From Patescibacteria group bacterium (GTDB lineage: Bacteria > Patescibacteriota > JABMPQ01 > JAQVVF01), in assembly GCA_028699085.1 (NCBI GenBank), contig JAQVVF010000002.1, forward strand, positions 3,074 through 67,073: a stretch of DNA of 64,000 nucleotides, given 5' to 3'. Under the pieces are notes generated by a model. That model saw nothing but the letters and a program-made list of their open reading frames with translations, did not search any database and was not told the origin of the DNA. A program made the position numbers and the translations under genes. Of the stretch, positions 785 to 13,057 are shown piece by piece; the first letter of the stretch is position 1; each line of letters begins with the position of its first letter.

Positions 785-861
785 GGACCTGTAGCTCAGC
801 TGGATAGAGCGTCCGTCTCCGGAACGGAAGGTCACCGGTTCGAATCCGGCCAGGTCCACCA
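785..861 (+). tRNA. tRNA-Arg (anticodon CCG)
   Basis: Cloverleaf read by hand: acceptor GGACCTG/CAGGTCC, D-arm GCTCAGCTGGATAGAGC, anticodon stem GTCCG/CGGAA (weak first pair), loop TCTCCGGAA (9 nt, unresolved), T-arm CACCGGTTCGAATCCGGC, encoded CCA. Confidence 0.8.
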
Positions 862-880
862 GCCATTCTTGTTCTTTTTA

Positions 881-953
881 GGCCCCATAGCTCAGTGGAT
901 AGAGCAGCGGTTTCCTAAACCGCGGGTCGCCAGTTCAAGTCTGGCTGGGGTCA
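881..953 (+). tRNA. tRNA-Arg (anticodon CCT)
   Basis: Acceptor GGCCCCA/TGGGGTC (one G-U), anticodon stem GCGGT/ACCGC, loop TTCCTAA, T-arm GCCAGTTCAAGTCTGGC. No encoded CCA. Confidence 0.8.
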
Positions 954-973
954 CAACCACCAGTTTACGGTTA

Positions 974-1049
974 GCGCCTGTAGCTCAGTGGATAGAGCAG
1001 CGGACTTCGAATCCGACTGTCGCAGGTTCAAATCCTGTCAGGCGCGCCA
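974..1049 (+). tRNA. tRNA-Arg (anticodon TCG)
   Basis: Acceptor GCGCCTG/CAGGCGC, D-arm GCTCAGTGGATAGAGC, anticodon loop CTTCGAA, T-arm GCAGGTTCAAATCCTGT, encoded CCA. Confidence 0.8.
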
Positions 1050-1074
1050 AATTCAGATATTCTGTTTGAGTCAA

Positions 1075-1150
1075 GGGCCTGTAGCTCAGTGGATAGAGCA
1101 TCCGCCTTCTAAGCGGAGGGTCGTCGGTTCGAGCCCGATCAGGCCTGCCA
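1075..1150 (+). tRNA. tRNA-Arg (anticodon TCT)
   Basis: Acceptor GGGCCTG/CAGGCCT, anticodon stem TCCGC/GCGGA, loop CTTCTAA, T-arm GTCGGTTCGAGCCCGAT, encoded CCA. Confidence 0.8.
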
Positions 1151-1220
1151 AAGTTTACACTTTTGTAAACAACCAATTTATTTCTTTGCACTTTTAATCA
1201 CAATTATTCTTGTACCTTTA

Positions 1221-1296
1221 GCGCCTGTAGCTCAGTGGATAGAGCACTGGTCTGCGGAACCAGGGGTCGTCGGTTCGAAACCGATCAGGCGCGCCA
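1221..1296 (+). tRNA. tRNA-Arg (apparent anticodon GCG)
   Basis: Acceptor GCGCCTG/CAGGCGC, anticodon stem CTGGT/ACCAG, loop CTGCGGA (positions 34-36 = GCG), T-arm GTCGGTTCGAAACCGAT, encoded CCA. It is near-identical to tRNAs 3 and 4 outside the anticodon arm. Confidence 0.7.
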
Positions 1297-9679: not shown

Positions 9680-10762
9680 TTAAAATCTCAACATCGCTCC
9701 AATTCCACCCATTCCCGCTAATTTTTCATTATCTTCCACAAATTCAATTTTTGCTTTATGGCTAAAAACCTTTTGAACTAATTCATCAACTACATCCTTG
9801 ACATCTTCTGTTTTGAAACTGCAATAAGGACAAACAACTTCATCAAGACCCAAAAAATCACAATTTGGACATTTCTTTCCAGTTGTACTTAATTTAGAAT
9901 CAAGCAACAAAGTTTTAACATCTCTCTCTTGTGCTGCATTCAAAACATTTTTCAAACCGGCAACAGCTAGCTGACCATTCAAACTATTATTTAATTCTTC
10001 AACAAGCATTGCCTCATTTTTTCTTTCTACTTTTTCTTGAACTTGCAATGACTGTTCTAAAAAATGTTCATTAGGCTTGAATAATTCTGTATAAAATTCA
10101 CCTACTACTCTATTTTTCAATTCTGTATGCAAAATTTTCTTTAATTCCGGCAAGATCTCTTTTGATCCAGCTAAAATCAGTCTATCAAATCCTTTTTCTT
10201 TCCAAAATTTAAAAAGCTGATCATTGATCTTTTTCAAATGACGATGCACATGCTCTTCGATATGCAAAGCCTCGCCTTGTTGTACTAATCCGCCTTGATC
10301 ATGTTTGCCAGGAAACTCATCAAAAATATAGCTAAAATCTTGAATCACACCCAAAAAGACTGTAAACAATTTTGCTTTTTCTTTATCACAAACTACAACA
10401 CAATATCTTTCTAATTCATCAAGGACTTGTAACAGTTGCTCAATATGAACATTTTTTTCAACATAAGCTCCTGTCTTAATTGGACAAGGAAATTTATAGA
10501 TTGACCAAAAATTTTTAGATGGACTAGCGTAAAATGCCATGCCTCGGATTTTTTTATCCAATCTCAAATCAATCCATTCTTCAACTTGTTTTGTTGCTTC
10601 ACTTCCCAATTTTTCTTCAACATTTTTCAATAAATCTTTTAGCTTATTTTCAATTTCTTCTGGCTTGTAACGTCTTTGATCGCAATTTAAATAAAGTGTT
10701 ACTACATCCTCTTTGTCGCTTTGTAAACGATTTAATTTTGTTATGTCTTTATTTTCTATCAT
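9680..10762 (-). CDS. eRF1/Pelota-like protein (bacterial eRF1-domain protein) with zinc-ribbon insert
   Basis: Central KHDQGGLVQQGEALHIEEHVHRH resembles the eRF1 domain-2 KHGRGGQSA...RH region, although no GGQ is present. The C-terminal AGMGGIGAMLRF matches the eRF1/Pelota domain-3 GGIAAILRY motif. A CPNC...CPYC ribbon sits in domain 3. Confidence 0.5.
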   Translation of the reverse strand: MIENKDITKLNRLQSDKEDVVTLYLNCDQRRYKPEEIENKLKDLLKNVEEKLGSEATKQVEEWIDLRLDKKIRGMAFYASPSKNFWSIYKFPCPIKTGAYVEKNVHIEQLLQVLDELERYCVVVCDKEKAKLFTVFLGVIQDFSYIFDEFPGKHDQGGLVQQGEALHIEEHVHRHLKKINDQLFKFWKEKGFDRLILAGSKEILPELKKILHTELKNRVVGEFYTELFKPNEHFLEQSLQVQEKVERKNEAMLVEELNNSLNGQLAVAGLKNVLNAAQERDVKTLLLDSKLSTTGKKCPNCDFLGLDEVVCPYCSFKTEDVKDVVDELVQKVFSHKAKIEFVEDNEKLAGMGGIGAMLRF

Positions 10763-10775
10763 ATTTTTAATTTAT

Positions 10776-10805
10776 TGTAGGGAGCAAAAATTTTTGCTCC
10801 CTACA
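10776..10805. promoter_or_regulatory. 30-bp perfect palindrome in a divergent promoter region
   Basis: TGTAGGGAGCAAAAA|TTTTTGCTCCCTACA. It lies 14 nt upstream of the eRF1-like start codon and just upstream of the plus-strand tRNA promoter. Confidence 0.5.
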
Positions 10806-10818
10806 TATTTTATCACAA

Positions 10819-10847
10819 TTTACAAAATTTTAAAAATCAAGTATAAT
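10819..10847 (+). promoter_or_regulatory. Candidate sigma70 promoter for the tRNA-Gly/Thr locus (-35 TTTACA 10819-10824, 17-nt spacer, -10 TATAAT 10842-10847)
   Basis: Near-consensus hexamers with 17-nt spacing, 30 nt upstream of tRNA-Gly. Confidence 0.45.
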
Positions 10848-10877
10848 TTCTCAAGAATAATAAATAATAATTCACGA

Positions 10878-10948
10878 GCGAGTATAGCACAGTGGTAGTG
10901 CGCTTGCTTCCCAAGCAAGATATGTGAGTTCGATTCTCATTACTCGCT
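10878..10948 (+). tRNA. tRNA-Gly (anticodon CCC)
   Basis: Acceptor GCGAGTA/TACTCGC, D-arm GCACAGTGGTAGTGC, anticodon stem CTTGC/GCAAG with loop TTCCCAA, T-arm GTGAGTTCGATTCTCAT. Confidence 0.8.
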
Positions 10949-10952
10949 ATCC

Positions 10953-10975
10953 GCCAGAGTAGCTCAGTCGGCAGA
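10953..10975 (+). pseudogene. tRNA 5' fragment (acceptor plus start of D-arm: GCCAGAG TA GCTC AGTCGG...)
   Basis: Matches the canonical tRNA 5' end but no complete D-arm follows. Its acceptor is complementary to CTCTGGC at 11128-11134. Confidence 0.35.
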
Positions 10976-10994
10976 CCTGCCCGCCAGAGCCAAA

Positions 10995-11067
10995 GCCCGT
11001 GTAGCTCAGTTGGTAGAGCAATGCTTTCGTAAAGCAGAGGTCGTCGGTTCGATCCCGACCATGGGCT
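10995..11067 (+). tRNA. tRNA-Thr (anticodon CGT)
   Basis: Acceptor GCCCGTG/CATGGGC (one G-U), D-arm GCTCAGTTGGTAGAGC, anticodon stem ATGCT/AGCAG with loop TTCGTAA, T-arm GTCGGTTCGATCCCGAC. Confidence 0.8.
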
Positions 11068-11088
11068 CTGGCTTTGGCAGGCGGGGCA

Positions 11089-11135
11089 ACACTTTCGTAA
11101 AGTGAAGGTCAAGAGTTCGATTCTCTTCTCTGGCT
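11089..11135 (+). pseudogene. tRNA 3' fragment (anticodon arm CACT-TTCGTAA-AGTG, T-arm AAGAGTTCGATTCTCTT, acceptor CTCTGGC)
   Basis: It has the same TTTCGTAAAG anticodon-loop motif as the intact tRNA-Thr. It lacks its own D-arm and 5' acceptor. A third degenerate copy (ACGTTCGTAAAGCAAAGG) lies at about 11143-11165. Confidence 0.35.
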
Positions 11136-11208
11136 AAAAAACAACGTTCGTAAAGCAAAGGTCGAAAGTAGATCCTGGAAAGTGGCTAATATTTAAAATT
11201 AAACATTC

Positions 11209-11233
11209 AAAAACCCGTCATTCGACGGGTTTT
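11209..11233. terminator. Bidirectional hairpin terminator AAAACCCGTC-ATTC-GACGGGTTTT
   Basis: Perfect stem flanked by an A-run and a T-run. It sits between the plus-strand tRNA locus and the stop of minus-strand gene 11252..13057. Confidence 0.6.
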
Positions 11234-11251
11234 AGTATGCTCAGTTTTTTC

Positions 11252-12057
11252 CTATTTCACTCCAATCGCAAAATATTGTGTCTTAATTGGATATTTTGTG
11301 AAATATTTTACAATGAATTTCTTGTCTTTCTTGATTATCTTGGCATCTGTGAATGTTGTATTAATATTCTGCCATGTGCCAGTTCCTTTTTTGTATTTTA
11401 AGAATAGATTTGCTTTTGTTGCTGATTTATTCTTTTTAAGATATTTCTTTAATTGCTTTTTAGTAAATTTGAATGATACTTTGATTTTGAATTTCTGTGA
11501 TGATTTTTTTACTTTGTATTTGTATAAATTTGTTTTCAATTTCCACTTTTTCAAGAACGTTTTGTTTGGATAACCAGTTGATTTATTCCATTTCATCCAA
11601 TATGCGCTGTTCTTTGTTAATTTGGTTGGAAGCTTTGTGAAATTGATTGTTAGACTTTGACCAGAGATTATTTCATTATTTAATTCTGATTCAAGAATAA
11701 ATTTCTGTCCTGCCCTTAATAAATCTTCGGCCTGATTATTTTCAACCTGGTTAGCTTCAATGATGTATGCTTCTGTTTTGATTTCTTCTGTATTACCAAG
11801 ACTGTCAATTGAAAAGAATTTTAAAGTTGTATCTTGAGTAATTACTATTGGATTTGAATAAACTGTTGAAGAAGTTGTTGGATCTGTGCCATCAATTGTG
11901 TAATAAGTTGCAACAACTGTTGAGTCTGCATCTGTGGCAGATAAAGTAATAGTTTGAGGAGCAGTATATGTTCCTCCAGCTAGCGAAGCTGTGGTTGTAG
12001 GAGCAAGGTAATCAATAAACCATGAAGCAATGTAATTTGCTGATATACCGCCGGCAG
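11252..12057. repeat. Dispersed repeat of about 0.8 kb, near-identical to 56644-57428 (3' module of the propeller-family genes)
   Basis: Aligned by eye: long runs of identity with scattered substitutions and one roughly 20-nt indel. Related but more diverged copies occur at 35539-35935 and 18082-18480. Confidence 0.7.
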
Positions 12058-13057
12058 TTGTAAAATCACCTCCGACATAGAGTTCGTCATTATAGACTGT
12101 TAATGCATCTACTTCATAATTCATTCCAGATCCTACTGCACTCCAAGAAAAGCCATTCCATTTCGAAATACAATTACCATAATCACCAGTAAAATCTCCA
12201 CCAGCATAAAGTTCATTATCATATACAACTAATGAATAAATATTTCCTGTAATTGTAGTGCCAACAGCACCTAAAGAATTATTATCCCAAACAGCAATAT
12301 AGTTAGAAACACCACCGCCAGCAATAGTGAATATTCCGCCAATATACAATTCATTATCGTAAACTGCTAAGGAATACACAAAACTATCAAGCTCAGTTCC
12401 ATCTCCAACTTTGCTCCAAGAACTTCCATTCCATTTCGAGATGTAATTGCCATTAACAGATGTAAATGCTCCTCCAACATAAAGTTCGTTATTATAAACA
12501 CAAAGAGAATTTACATAAGAGTTTAATTCTGTTCCAGCTCCAACTGGAGTCCATGAAGAATCATTCCATTTAACGATATAATTAGCAGGAGCACCATCAA
12601 TATTAGCATTACCACCAACATATAATTCATTATTATAGACAGCTAAGGAATAAACATTACCAGTTACTGCAGTGCCAACAGCACTTAAAGAACTGCCATC
12701 CCAAACAGCAATATAATTGGCAACACTGCCGCCAGCAATAGTAAATGTTCCGCCAATATATAGCTTGTTATTATAAACTACCATAGAAGTAGCTCGACCA
12801 TTGTTAATTCCTGTACCTGCTACTGAACTCCATGAACTGCCATTCCATTTAGCAATTCTTGAACCAGGACTAGTTGTAAAATAACCACCGACATATAGTT
12901 CATTATTGTAAACTGCAAGCGAACGTATATAGCTATCAGTTCCATCACCCAATGCACTCCAAGATGAACTTGTTCTAGCAAAAGATTGATTAACGAAACA
13001 ATAAACACCAATGACTAGAATCATAAACAACGTCATTCTTAAAAATATTTTTTTCAT
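11252..13057 (-). CDS. Secreted 7-bladed beta-propeller surface protein with lysine-rich C-terminal domain (paralog family member 1)
   Basis: Signal peptide MKKIFLRMTLFMILVIGVYCFVNQSFA, then seven repeats of about 47 aa (VYNNELYVGGxFT...NYIAKWNGSSWSxVG). An Ig-like segment follows (YTIDGTDPTTSSTVYSNPIVITQDTTLKFFSID), then a roughly 125-aa K-rich tail ending FAIGVK. Confidence 0.8.
   Translation of the reverse strand: MKKIFLRMTLFMILVIGVYCFVNQSFARTSSSWSALGDGTDSYIRSLAVYNNELYVGGYFTTSPGSRIAKWNGSSWSSVAGTGINNGRATSMVVYNNKLYIGGTFTIAGGSVANYIAVWDGSSLSAVGTAVTGNVYSLAVYNNELYVGGNANIDGAPANYIVKWNDSSWTPVGAGTELNSYVNSLCVYNNELYVGGAFTSVNGNYISKWNGSSWSKVGDGTELDSFVYSLAVYDNELYIGGIFTIAGGGVSNYIAVWDNNSLGAVGTTITGNIYSLVVYDNELYAGGDFTGDYGNCISKWNGFSWSAVGSGMNYEVDALTVYNDELYVGGDFTTAGGISANYIASWFIDYLAPTTTASLAGGTYTAPQTITLSATDADSTVVATYYTIDGTDPTTSSTVYSNPIVITQDTTLKFFSIDSLGNTEEIKTEAYIIEANQVENNQAEDLLRAGQKFILESELNNEIISGQSLTINFTKLPTKLTKNSAYWMKWNKSTGYPNKTFLKKWKLKTNLYKYKVKKSSQKFKIKVSFKFTKKQLKKYLKKNKSATKANLFLKYKKGTGTWQNINTTFTDAKIIKKDKKFIVKYFTKYPIKTQYFAIGVK

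Follow-up and report, generated by a model that had tools for sequence, protein, structure and literature searches.

A Balon-like eRF1-type protein encoded in a Patescibacteria genome and the nested tRNA-Thr genes beside it

What is a protein built like the release factor eRF1 doing in a bacterium of the candidate phyla radiation (CPR), and does it matter that its gene stands back to back with tRNA genes? Both questions are raised by an open reading frame (ORF) on the minus strand (9680-10762, ATG start, 360 amino acids) of a 64,000-nucleotide stretch of contig JAQVVF010000002.1 from a Patescibacteria (CPR) genome (assembly GCA_028699085.1). The whole stretch is referred to below as the window and the ORF product as the window protein. 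An original prediction made from the sequence had proposed an eRF1/Pelota-like protein with a zinc ribbon but no GGQ motif, had called the adjacent tRNA locus decayed, and had connected such proteins with conflict and quality-control systems. We find that the protein belongs to the family that contains the ribosome hibernation factor Balon, and that the tRNA locus has an unexpected architecture of its own.

Family membership and predicted fold

The window protein matched the Pfam model baeRF_family10 (PF18854) at 83.2 bits (E = 2.8e-23; amino acids 106-241, profile positions 2-141 of 143), above the gathering cutoff of 27.1 bits that defines a member. Its C-terminal domain is of the eRF1_3 type, ending in GGIGAMLRF, and matched that model at 31.6 bits (cutoff, 25.8 bits; E = 2.5e-7; amino acids 250-360). 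The score for eRF1_2 (20.4 bits) was under the threshold of 27.1 bits, and eRF1_1 (PF03463) gave no match. In NCBIfam, full-length alignments were obtained to the ribosome hibernation factor models MSMEG_1130 and AOC03_06830 as well as to aRF1/eRF1. The best sequence match in the PDB was the M. smegmatis Balon protein Msmeg1130 (8v9j chain z; E = 8e-8; residues 14-359 against 18-374). Eukaryotic eRF1 chains came next, with KKHGRGGQS aligned to GKHDQGGLV and GFGGIGAVMRY to the GMGGIGAMLRF that closes the window protein. By these alignments and the eRF1_3 match, the domain 2 and domain 3 signatures named in the original prediction (KHDQGGLVQQGEALHIEEHVHRH and GMGGIGAMLRF) are genuine, and the resemblance to eRF1 is far above chance level.

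Msmeg1130 itself, its sequence rebuilt from the residues of the PDB alignment with the window protein, scored 124.6 bits on baeRF_family10. Because both match this model, the window protein and a structurally characterised Balon fall into one Pfam family. Family 10 was defined computationally by Burroughs and Aravind in 2019 (PMC6514570), and 2024 brought the characterisation, as Balon, of relatives that match this Pfam family, namely AOC03_06830 of P. urativorans, Msmeg1130 of M. smegmatis and Rv2629 of M. tuberculosis (PMC10901736). A classical aRF1/eRF1 identity was rejected: TIGR03676 (aRF1/eRF1) reached 66.9 bits against a cutoff of 234.7, eRF1_1 was absent and eRF1_2 under threshold, and the sequence contains neither NIKS nor GGQ.

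An AlphaFold2 model computed with 29 homologues as input had a mean predicted local distance difference test score (pLDDT) of 85.3 and a predicted template modeling (TM) score of 0.73; the loop KHDQGGLVQ (residues 153-161) was the only segment with a pLDDT below 50. In a Foldseek search of the PDB, the top match was Msmeg1130 Balon on the 70S ribosome (8v9l_z; E = 8e-26; TM score, 0.83), and the search also returned Balon of Rv2629 (8v9k_z; 0.78) and of P. urativorans (8rdw_B; 0.70), archaeal aRF1 (4af1; 0.56) and ribosome-bound eRF1 chains (about 0.5 to 0.6). The predicted fold of the window protein matches the three-domain aeRF1 conformation of ribosome-bound Balon. Pelota/Dom34 was rejected as the closest relative, since its chains reached TM scores of only 0.27 to 0.44 and ranked under Balon and aRF1/eRF1. 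Two of the checks proposed with the original prediction, a hidden Markov model search and a structure prediction, came out in its favor: eRF1_3 and baeRF_family10 were both matched, and the model has the full three-domain aeRF1 fold, fitting Balon best.

The loop, the zinc ribbon and the proposed function

We hypothesize that the window protein is a noncatalytic A-site factor acting like Balon, and we consider this somewhat better than an even proposition; ribosome binding, EF-Tu contact and the lack of catalysis are all inferred. It would be a tRNA-shaped, three-domain factor of the ribosomal A site from the bacterial aeRF1 clade. The N-terminal domain would sit at the decoding center of idle or stressed ribosomes and, because NIKS is absent, would not read stop codons. 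The middle domain would set the KHxxGGxxQ loop beside the peptidyl-transferase center without release of the peptide, and the C-terminal domain would contact EF-Tu through an insertion that is a zinc ribbon here and a beta-hairpin in Balon. The adjacent tRNA genes would lie outside this mechanism, as inherited gene order.

The loop also bears on the main alternative, in which the protein is a catalytic release or rescue factor whose GGxxQ loop hydrolyzes peptidyl-tRNA on stalled ribosomes independently of stop codons, through a retained, ancestral aRF1-like activity. GGQ is missing, as had been predicted; the aligned position reads GGL, with a glutamine two residues further on (GGLVQ). Across 13 CPR homologues of 39-89% identity, K153, G157, G158 and Q161 are invariant, and the loop with its flanks is close to that of archaeal aRF1 (PGKHDAGGQS, against a wider homologue consensus of PGKHxQGGWSQxxxQRH), with an offset of two residues. 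The GGWSQ of this consensus fits the GGxSQ pattern reported for the VLRF-1 families aVLRF-1 and acVLRF-1, and Burroughs and Aravind picked out family 10 as possibly catalytic (PMC6514570). Two relatives of the window protein (P0014 and P0027) match Pfam acVLRF1, and retention of the ancestral zinc ribbon would also suit a catalytic factor.

However, among the 176 closest cluster representatives, Gln occupies position 161 in no more than 93 (53%), and 40 (23%) have Glu there, a variation unexpected for a catalytic glutamine that disfavors catalysis; W159 (114 representatives) and R166 (140) are better conserved. The window protein and its nearest relatives are relaxed at such family-conserved sites (W159L, S160V, R166L and P109Q, the last at a position where 147 of the 176 have Pro), so that in the window protein Val precedes the Gln, and neither the family's Trp nor the conserved Arg in the helix after the loop is present. 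The loop reads GGLVQQGEALH in the window, GGWSQQGNALH in P0001 and GGLAQQNQASH in P0002. Msmeg1130 has AGQ at the aligned position, yet it is reported to occupy the A site without aeRF1-type GGQ function and without releasing the peptide (PMC10901736). Because Q161 varies, loop sites have been lost and Msmeg1130 is reported as nonreleasing despite its AGQ, a noncatalytic role is favored, and a catalytic factor appears unlikely. VLRF-1 membership was rejected for the window protein itself, which gave no match to acVLRF1 (PF18859) at E up to 1 and in whose GGLVQ the Gln is preceded by Val instead of a tiny residue.

The zinc ribbon of the original prediction is borne out by conservation. Among 29 homologues, C298, C311 and C314 never vary, and conservation of C301 is 90% or higher; in the alignment of the 13 CPR homologues, too, the cysteines are invariant or almost so, and all four are present in 156 of the 176 closest cluster representatives. 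The ribbon aligns with the CLNC...CPKC of P0036, a true archaeal aRF1 that matches eRF1_1, eRF1_2 and eRF1_3, and it also aligns with the segment VGTVGADGSLYADGEIAPHSH, where Msmeg1130 has its beta-hairpin. In many baeRF-1 families, an insert of two beta-strands, perhaps a degenerate ribbon, takes the place of the zinc ribbon in the Pelota domain (PMC6514570), and Balon contacts EF-Tu via a beta-hairpin insertion of its C-terminal domain (PMC10901736). Balon-type factors are further marked by a lasso loop and a bL27 trap, by A-site binding with EF-Tu on both vacant and translating ribosomes, and by a part in the recovery from dormancy. Judging from these alignments, the ribbon of the window protein may represent the ancestral form of Balon's EF-Tu-binding hairpin. 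Elsewhere in the alignment, the His-Pro pair of Msmeg1130 (segment FIHPL) is matched by Glu-Gln in the window protein, and its second position is the one at which 147 of the 176 representatives have Pro. If this pair is the HP motif with which Balon contacts the decoding center, a motif described without residue numbers (PMC10901736), the window protein would lack it.

A second alternative keeps the protein noncatalytic but makes it a Pelota/Dom34-like factor that senses stalled ribosomes or ribosomes with an empty A site and promotes their splitting or recycling with a GTPase, rather than long-term hibernation. The three-domain fold and the absence of a catalytic GGQ would be the same, a C-terminal domain of this type binds EF-Tu-family GTPases (PMC10901736), and proteostasis genes (ClpB-like, FtsH and PCMT) lie near some homologues. 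The TM scores to Pelota of 0.3 to 0.4 are nevertheless much below those to Balon, the Pfam scan of neighboring genes found no linked partner ATPase or GTPase, and loop A, the characteristic mRNA-channel probe of Pelota, is missing from Balon (PMC10901736; a statement about Balon rather than the window protein). We regard a Pelota-like role as quite improbable.

Several points nonetheless weigh against a Balon-like role. To the invariance of the four loop residues within the CPR, the VLRF-1-like consensus and the published suggestion of catalysis are added the NCBIfam models NF052288, NF052287 and NF052289, on which the window protein scored 72.4, 71.3 and 32.3 bits against equivalog cutoffs of 480, 330 and 320. 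One homologue is named by NCBI as a Vms1/Ankzf1-family peptidyl-tRNA hydrolase. Neither HPF/RaiA nor a clear stress-operon context was found around the window gene or among 127 neighbors of 43 homologous loci, and we found no experimental study of any zinc-ribbon-bearing member in the literature.

Distribution and gene order

A word-indexed search returned 36 homologues, nearly all from Patescibacteria/Parcubacteria metagenome bins and variously named at source ("host attachment protein," "eRF1," "Vms1/Ankzf1 family peptidyl-tRNA hydrolase"). An exhaustive search returned 2,473 cluster representatives at E up to 1e-3, including 244 at E up to 1e-30. Contigs with relatives, found by searching from 13 closer sequences, belonged to CPR, Chloroflexota, Eisenbacteria, Acidobacteriota and others; most cleanly called relatives kept the ribbon and many had GGW(S/A)Q. 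These counts, and the report of Balon homologues in about 20% of representative bacteria (PMC10901736), do not bear out the earlier statement that bacterial eRF1-like proteins are rare. No common partner emerged from a Pfam scan of the 127 flanking proteins of the 43 loci, in which ORF calling was crude at high-GC loci and several loci had no calls. The most frequent families, none with more than 8 proteins, were ABC transporters, AAA ATPases, PCMT, rhomboid, ClpB-like and FtsH, and HPF/RaiA did not appear in the list of 25 families with three or more members.

In the window, tRNA-Gly(CCC) and tRNA-Thr(CGT) lie divergently upstream of the baeRF gene. This adjacency is shared by CPR loci encoding homologues at 89% (L002/L008, L004 and L005), 61% (L006/L015) and 42% (L012 and L013) identity. 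Its retention over this range, and the targeting of the tRNA-Thr gene by an invasive element (see below), could be taken to mean that the protein and the tRNA locus form one tRNA-centered conflict or quality-control system. However, about 2 kb separates the tRNAs from the gene in L009 and L010, L011 has no such tRNAs, and in non-CPR loci none adjoins the gene (those of L014, L017-L019 and L029 lie 4 to 5 kb downstream). Loci that keep the adjacency also retain LepA-bPH-DivIC-(SurA) upstream, with a variable downstream side, and since this entire upstream block is syntenic the adjacency needs no functional explanation. The same element occurs in a tRNA-Thr gene of contig L099, where the tRNAs are followed by an RF2-like gene and no ORF of at least 150 amino acids is similar to baeRF; L002 and L004, the closest baeRF-carrying relatives of the window, lack the element. 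A single system of protein and tRNA locus is thus very improbable. The tRNA adjacency is conserved gene order of one CPR lineage, and there is no evidence for a functional link.

The original prediction did caution that the adjacency might be coincidental; the adjacency belongs to a LepA-bPH-DivIC-(SurA)-tRNA block conserved in one CPR lineage and is absent in non-CPR homologues. The link that it drew to tRNA-centered conflict or quality control is not supported, and the closest characterised relatives point to ribosome hibernation. The proposed check of neighborhood conservation gave a divided answer, with the gene-tRNA adjacency kept in one CPR lineage but loosened or lost in L009-L011, and with the tRNA insertion described below absent from L002-L015.

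The spacer between tRNA-Gly and tRNA-Thr appears to be an insertion hot spot. It holds a 162-amino-acid ORF without a Pfam match in L006/L015 (5259-5747 in L006) and a NUDIX hydrolase gene in L012 (4330-4809). Other differences flank the tRNAs. In L002 (5795-5900, minus strand), the tRNA promoter and tRNA-Gly are separated by an inserted segment of about 95 nt that contains a long inverted repeat (GCCCCGTACCAAGTTTCTG...CAGAAACTTGGTACGGGGC) and is missing from the window and L004. A motif of about 50 nt (..TTCCGACCNCTTGGCTNAAGCCAGGTAGAAA) lies between tRNA-Thr and the terminator in L002 (5590-5650) and L004 (5620-5680; both minus strand) and is missing in the window, where the 3' half of the interrupted tRNA-Thr and a third tRNA relic are found instead. 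In L099 (6346-9427), tRNA-Gly and the nested tRNA-Thr are followed by an ORF with a bacterial GGQ (RF2 by eye, unscanned) and then by ABC-ATPase-like and membrane-protein ORFs (FtsE/FtsX-like by eye); in L002, MacB_PCD/FtsX and ABC_tran proteins follow the baeRF gene in a position resembling that in L099. Downstream of the window gene are genes for an NAD(P)HX dehydratase, a PAPPA-like protein, a signal-peptide peptidase and an HD protein, and elsewhere in the window (785-1296) five tandem tRNA-Arg genes (anticodons CCG, CCT, TCG, TCT and GCG) occupy about 500 nt.

A tRNA-Thr gene inside a tRNA-Thr gene

The features of the baeRF gene and of the tRNA locus are collected in Table 1.

Table 1. 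Coordinates of the baeRF gene, its domains and the divergent tRNA locus in the window
Feature	Coordinates	Strand	Evidence or remark
eRF1-type protein gene, 360 aa (amino acids), three-domain aeRF1 fold, baeRF-1 family 10, Balon-like	9680..10762	-	ORF; Pfam, NCBIfam and PDB matches; AlphaFold2; Foldseek
Four-cysteine zinc ribbon CPNC...CPYC, aa ~296-316, inside eRF1_3/Pelota-type C-terminal domain	9815..9877	-	Cysteine conservation
Middle RNase-H-fold domain, aa ~118-245	10028..10411	-	baeRF_family10 match aa 106-241; aligned to eRF1 domain 2
Loop KHDQGGLVQ, aa 153-161, at eRF1 GGQ-loop position	10280..10306	-	Alignment with eRF1 KKHGRGGQS
N-terminal domain, aa ~1-117, beta-sheet and helical hairpin	10412..10762	-	Model secondary structure; no NIKS, no eRF1_1
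Perfect 30-nt palindrome TGTAGGGAGCAAAAA/TTTTTGCTCCCTACA, divergent promoter region	10776..10805	.	14 nt upstream of baeRF start codon; unique in window
Promoter-like site TTTACA-17-TATAAT of tRNA operon	10819..10847	+	11/12 matches; same motif in L002, L004, L006
tRNA-Gly(CCC)	10877..10949	+	ARAGORN; Rfam 71.6 bits
Host tRNA-Thr(CGT), 5' part, nt 1-23	10953..10975	+	Same type as uninterrupted tRNA-Thr of L002
110-nt insert: CCTGCCCGCC, 9-nt linker, cargo tRNA-Thr(CGT), linker, GGCAGGCGGG	10976..11085	+	
Cargo tRNA-Thr(CGT), complete, different from host	10995..11068	+	ARAGORN; Rfam 65 bits
Host tRNA-Thr(CGT), 3' part, nt 24-73	11086..11135	+	Partial Rfam tRNA match 11077-11135, 24.6 bits
Decayed 3' half of third tRNA-Thr(CGT)	~11143..11187	+	Anticodon arm and 3' end/flank AAGTGGCTAATAT match L004 tRNA-Thr
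Hairpin CCCGTCattcGACGGG then T run	11213..11233	.	After tRNA operon and after minus-strand gene 11252-13057

The 5' part of the interrupted host gene reads GCCAGAG TA GCTC AGTCGGCA GA and the 3' part GC A ... CTCTGGC T. When the two were joined in silico, ARAGORN recognized a tRNA-Thr(CGT) with a perfect acceptor stem, which by eye shows paired changes at 4:69 and 49:65 relative to the tRNA-Thr of L002. For the transcript, folding predicts a cloverleaf borne by a stalk of 24 bp that grows out of the D stem of the host (-83.6 kcal/mol; z = -4.6). The left junction was confirmed by an independent Logan contig, L001, encoding an identical protein. The tRNA locus of the window is a complete tRNA-Thr gene inside another tRNA-Thr gene and not a case of simple decay. 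The "decayed" locus with anticodon-arm fragments of the original prediction stands insofar as extra pieces and a decayed third 3' half are present, but the pieces to either side of the cargo are exact host halves.

L001 ends (its position 1, at about 11037 of the window) inside the anticodon arm of the cargo tRNA, which suggests an assembly break or strain heterogeneity at the tRNA locus. The 30-nt palindrome lies between two divergent promoter-like sites and may be a 5' untranslated region hairpin, an operator or a terminator-like insulator for the plus strand; inverted repeats of different sequence were seen by eye at about the same place in L002, L004 and L006. The hairpin at 11213-11233 was not listed as terminator-like by the site scan.

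An exact search of metagenome contigs for the left junction GCTCAGTYGGYAGACCTGCCCGCC found it in 54 stretches (L051-L104), which, with the window left out of the count, amount to 43 distinct contexts. The standard element, seen in 30 cases (29 metagenomic and the window), is 101 to 116 nt long, ends in GGCAGGCGGG or a variant with at most two mismatches, and carries a complete tRNA for Thr-CGT, Thr-GGT or Thr-TGT or, once, Val-TAC; L056 has a longer element of 149 nt with an Ala-GGC cargo. After in silico excision, host and cargo anticodons were the same in all 14 scorable cases, at host-cargo identities of 66-96%. In the pairs L059/L094, L065/L097, L064/L088 and window/L099, elements 90-97% identical occupy hosts whose acceptor regions and 3' parts are only 54-70% identical; elements more alike than their hosts indicate movement between host alleles. 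Insertions may also be stacked, as a double nest in L099 and as deeper (triple) nests in L095 and L081 that include insertions at 35/36 of the anticodon loop, inverted in L081. An empty shell adjoins a loaded one in L071 and L056, lies within a decayed host in L061 and L085, and stands in intergenic DNA in L083. Many hosts are damaged by additional GC-rich hairpin inserts or truncation. L099 and L083 share the order tRNA-Gly(CCC) to tRNA-Thr(CGT), and LepA is also near in L099; as this arrangement is that of the window, the context of at least these contigs is CPR-like. With a single copy of the shell in the window and none in the relatives L002-L015, the insertion is recent in the window lineage.

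A further kind of insert was seen in the hosts of L051, L054, L059, L088, L091 and L094, where the anticodon loop is replaced by a GC-rich hairpin of 5 to 7 bp and the anticodon is missing. Its stem differs between copies, with some paired changes by eye, and is followed by a conserved tail (TAAACTCCA, or TAAAGTCCA in L054). Either a second family of mobile hairpins or a conserved RNA resembling tRNA would account for it. Identical or similar palindromes of high GC content interrupt other loops of tRNA-Thr genes, in L060 (T loop), L093, L094 (T arm), and L081 and L095 (35/36), and are sometimes inverted (CCCGCCTGCC...GGCGGGCAGG). Position 35/36 is also where group I introns have been reported in tRNAs of Patescibacteria (PMC13011429).

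We tentatively propose, at somewhat less than even confidence, that these insertions form a recurrent class of small CPR elements with GC-rich palindromic ends, inserted precisely into tRNA genes, mostly after nt 23 of the D stem, with a cargo of the same anticodon. As to what such an element is, taken as a question by itself, it is probably a nonautonomous, site-specific DNA element whose cargo tRNA replaces the interrupted gene. This is argued by precise insertion without duplication, by tandem and nested insertions at the same site, by the occurrence of both orientations, and by empty copies outside tRNA genes and decayed hosts. Such a selfish element would persist through its cargo, which stands in for the inactivated gene; only insertions with cognate cargo would survive, and the hosts would then decay. 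The more radical possibility is an RNA-level intervening sequence of a kind new to bacteria, removed from the tRNA transcript. Hosts that are intact and perfectly paired, as in the window and in other cases, fit such removal, but recent insertion explains them equally well, and the terminal-helix hairpin, at -23.9 kcal/mol for the sense and -24.0 kcal/mol for the antisense strand, does not separate roles at the RNA and DNA levels.

An RNAalifold consensus of 28 elements recovered the terminal helix and the cargo cloverleaf; the helix is invariant and so yields no covariation evidence, and the linker helix was not recovered because the alignment is gapped there. Three further candidates were rejected. 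A group I intron would be recognized by an Rfam model match, a size of at least about 200 nt and insertion in the anticodon loop; the Rfam scan of 10700-11300 gave only tRNA and chance matches, and the insert has 110 nt (74 of them tRNA) and a D-stem site. An archaeal bulge-helix-bulge intron would show, at its splice sites, a pair of 3-nt bulges with a 4-bp helix between them, and here, by inspection and RNAfold rather than a dedicated search, the two junctions are at the foot of a single uninterrupted helix free of bulges. A phage origin of the cargo found no exact match in viral contigs.

Comparison with known systems

The window protein shares with Balon the three-domain aeRF1 fold, a Pfam model, the best sequence and structure matches in the PDB, the absence of both NIKS and GGQ, and an insertion of the C-terminal domain at Balon's EF-Tu-binding site. 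It differs in being only about 18-20% identical to Msmeg1130 (Foldseek alignments), in having an intact four-cysteine ribbon where Balon has a beta-hairpin, in retaining the aRF1-like KHxxGGxxQ, in having Glu-Gln for His-Pro, and in lacking a RaiA or stress-operon neighborhood in a CPR host. It is a member of baeRF-1 family 10 by score and has the Gln-containing loop noted for that family (PMC6514570); its subgroup, however, keeps the zinc ribbon where many families have the two-beta-strand insert, and its own loop deviates from the subgroup consensus. Domain order, the PGKH..GG loop context and the C-terminal GGIGAxLRF are those of aRF1/eRF1, and the archaeal aRF1 P0036 has its CxxC..CxxC pair at the same site; unlike these factors, the window protein lacks NIKS and the YxCxxxF stop-codon-reading signature (no eRF1_1 match) and has GGL..Q for GGQ. 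To the Vms1/ANKZF1-like VLRF-1 proteins it is connected by the family consensus GGWSQ, by homologues that match acVLRF1 and by the one so named at NCBI; it is set apart by the lack of an acVLRF1 match of its own, by Val before Gln and by the full three-domain aRF1 architecture.

What is new on the protein side is modest: the CPR host, the intact ribbon and the aRF1-like loop. These extend the family containing Balon into the CPR/Patescibacteria, ultrasmall bacteria with reduced genomes of which few are cultivated. A widespread subgroup with ancestral ribbon and aRF1-like loop would offer a natural test of how a release factor becomes a hibernation factor, and would suit the question of whether the hairpin that binds EF-Tu arose by decay of a zinc ribbon.

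For the tRNA element, a literature search that was thin on subscription journals found no nested, D-arm or palindromic insertions in bacterial tRNA genes. If mobile, the element would show how selfish DNA can, by a route new to science, enter an essential gene present in one copy and yet spare the host, because it supplies a replacement copy; if spliced, it would be a third kind of tRNA intron for bacteria. Nesting also explains why tRNA finders report just the innermost gene. Palindromic elements derived from IS200/IS605 are one system for comparison. Yeast mitochondrial GC-rich clusters are likewise GC-rich palindromes within an AT-rich genome (PMC4478555), and the group I introns of Patescibacteria tRNAs likewise interrupt tRNA genes of CPR bacteria at precise positions (PMC13011429). 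Taken jointly, the likenesses to these systems are the absence of target duplication and repeated or nested insertion. At 110 nt, with about 36 nt outside the cargo, the window element is nevertheless too small for a group I ribozyme, and by inspection it lacks the bulge-helix-bulge geometry of archaeal noncanonical introns and split tRNAs. It further differs by its site at 23/24 in the D stem, by its cargo of a complete tRNA with the same anticodon as its host and by encoding no protein.

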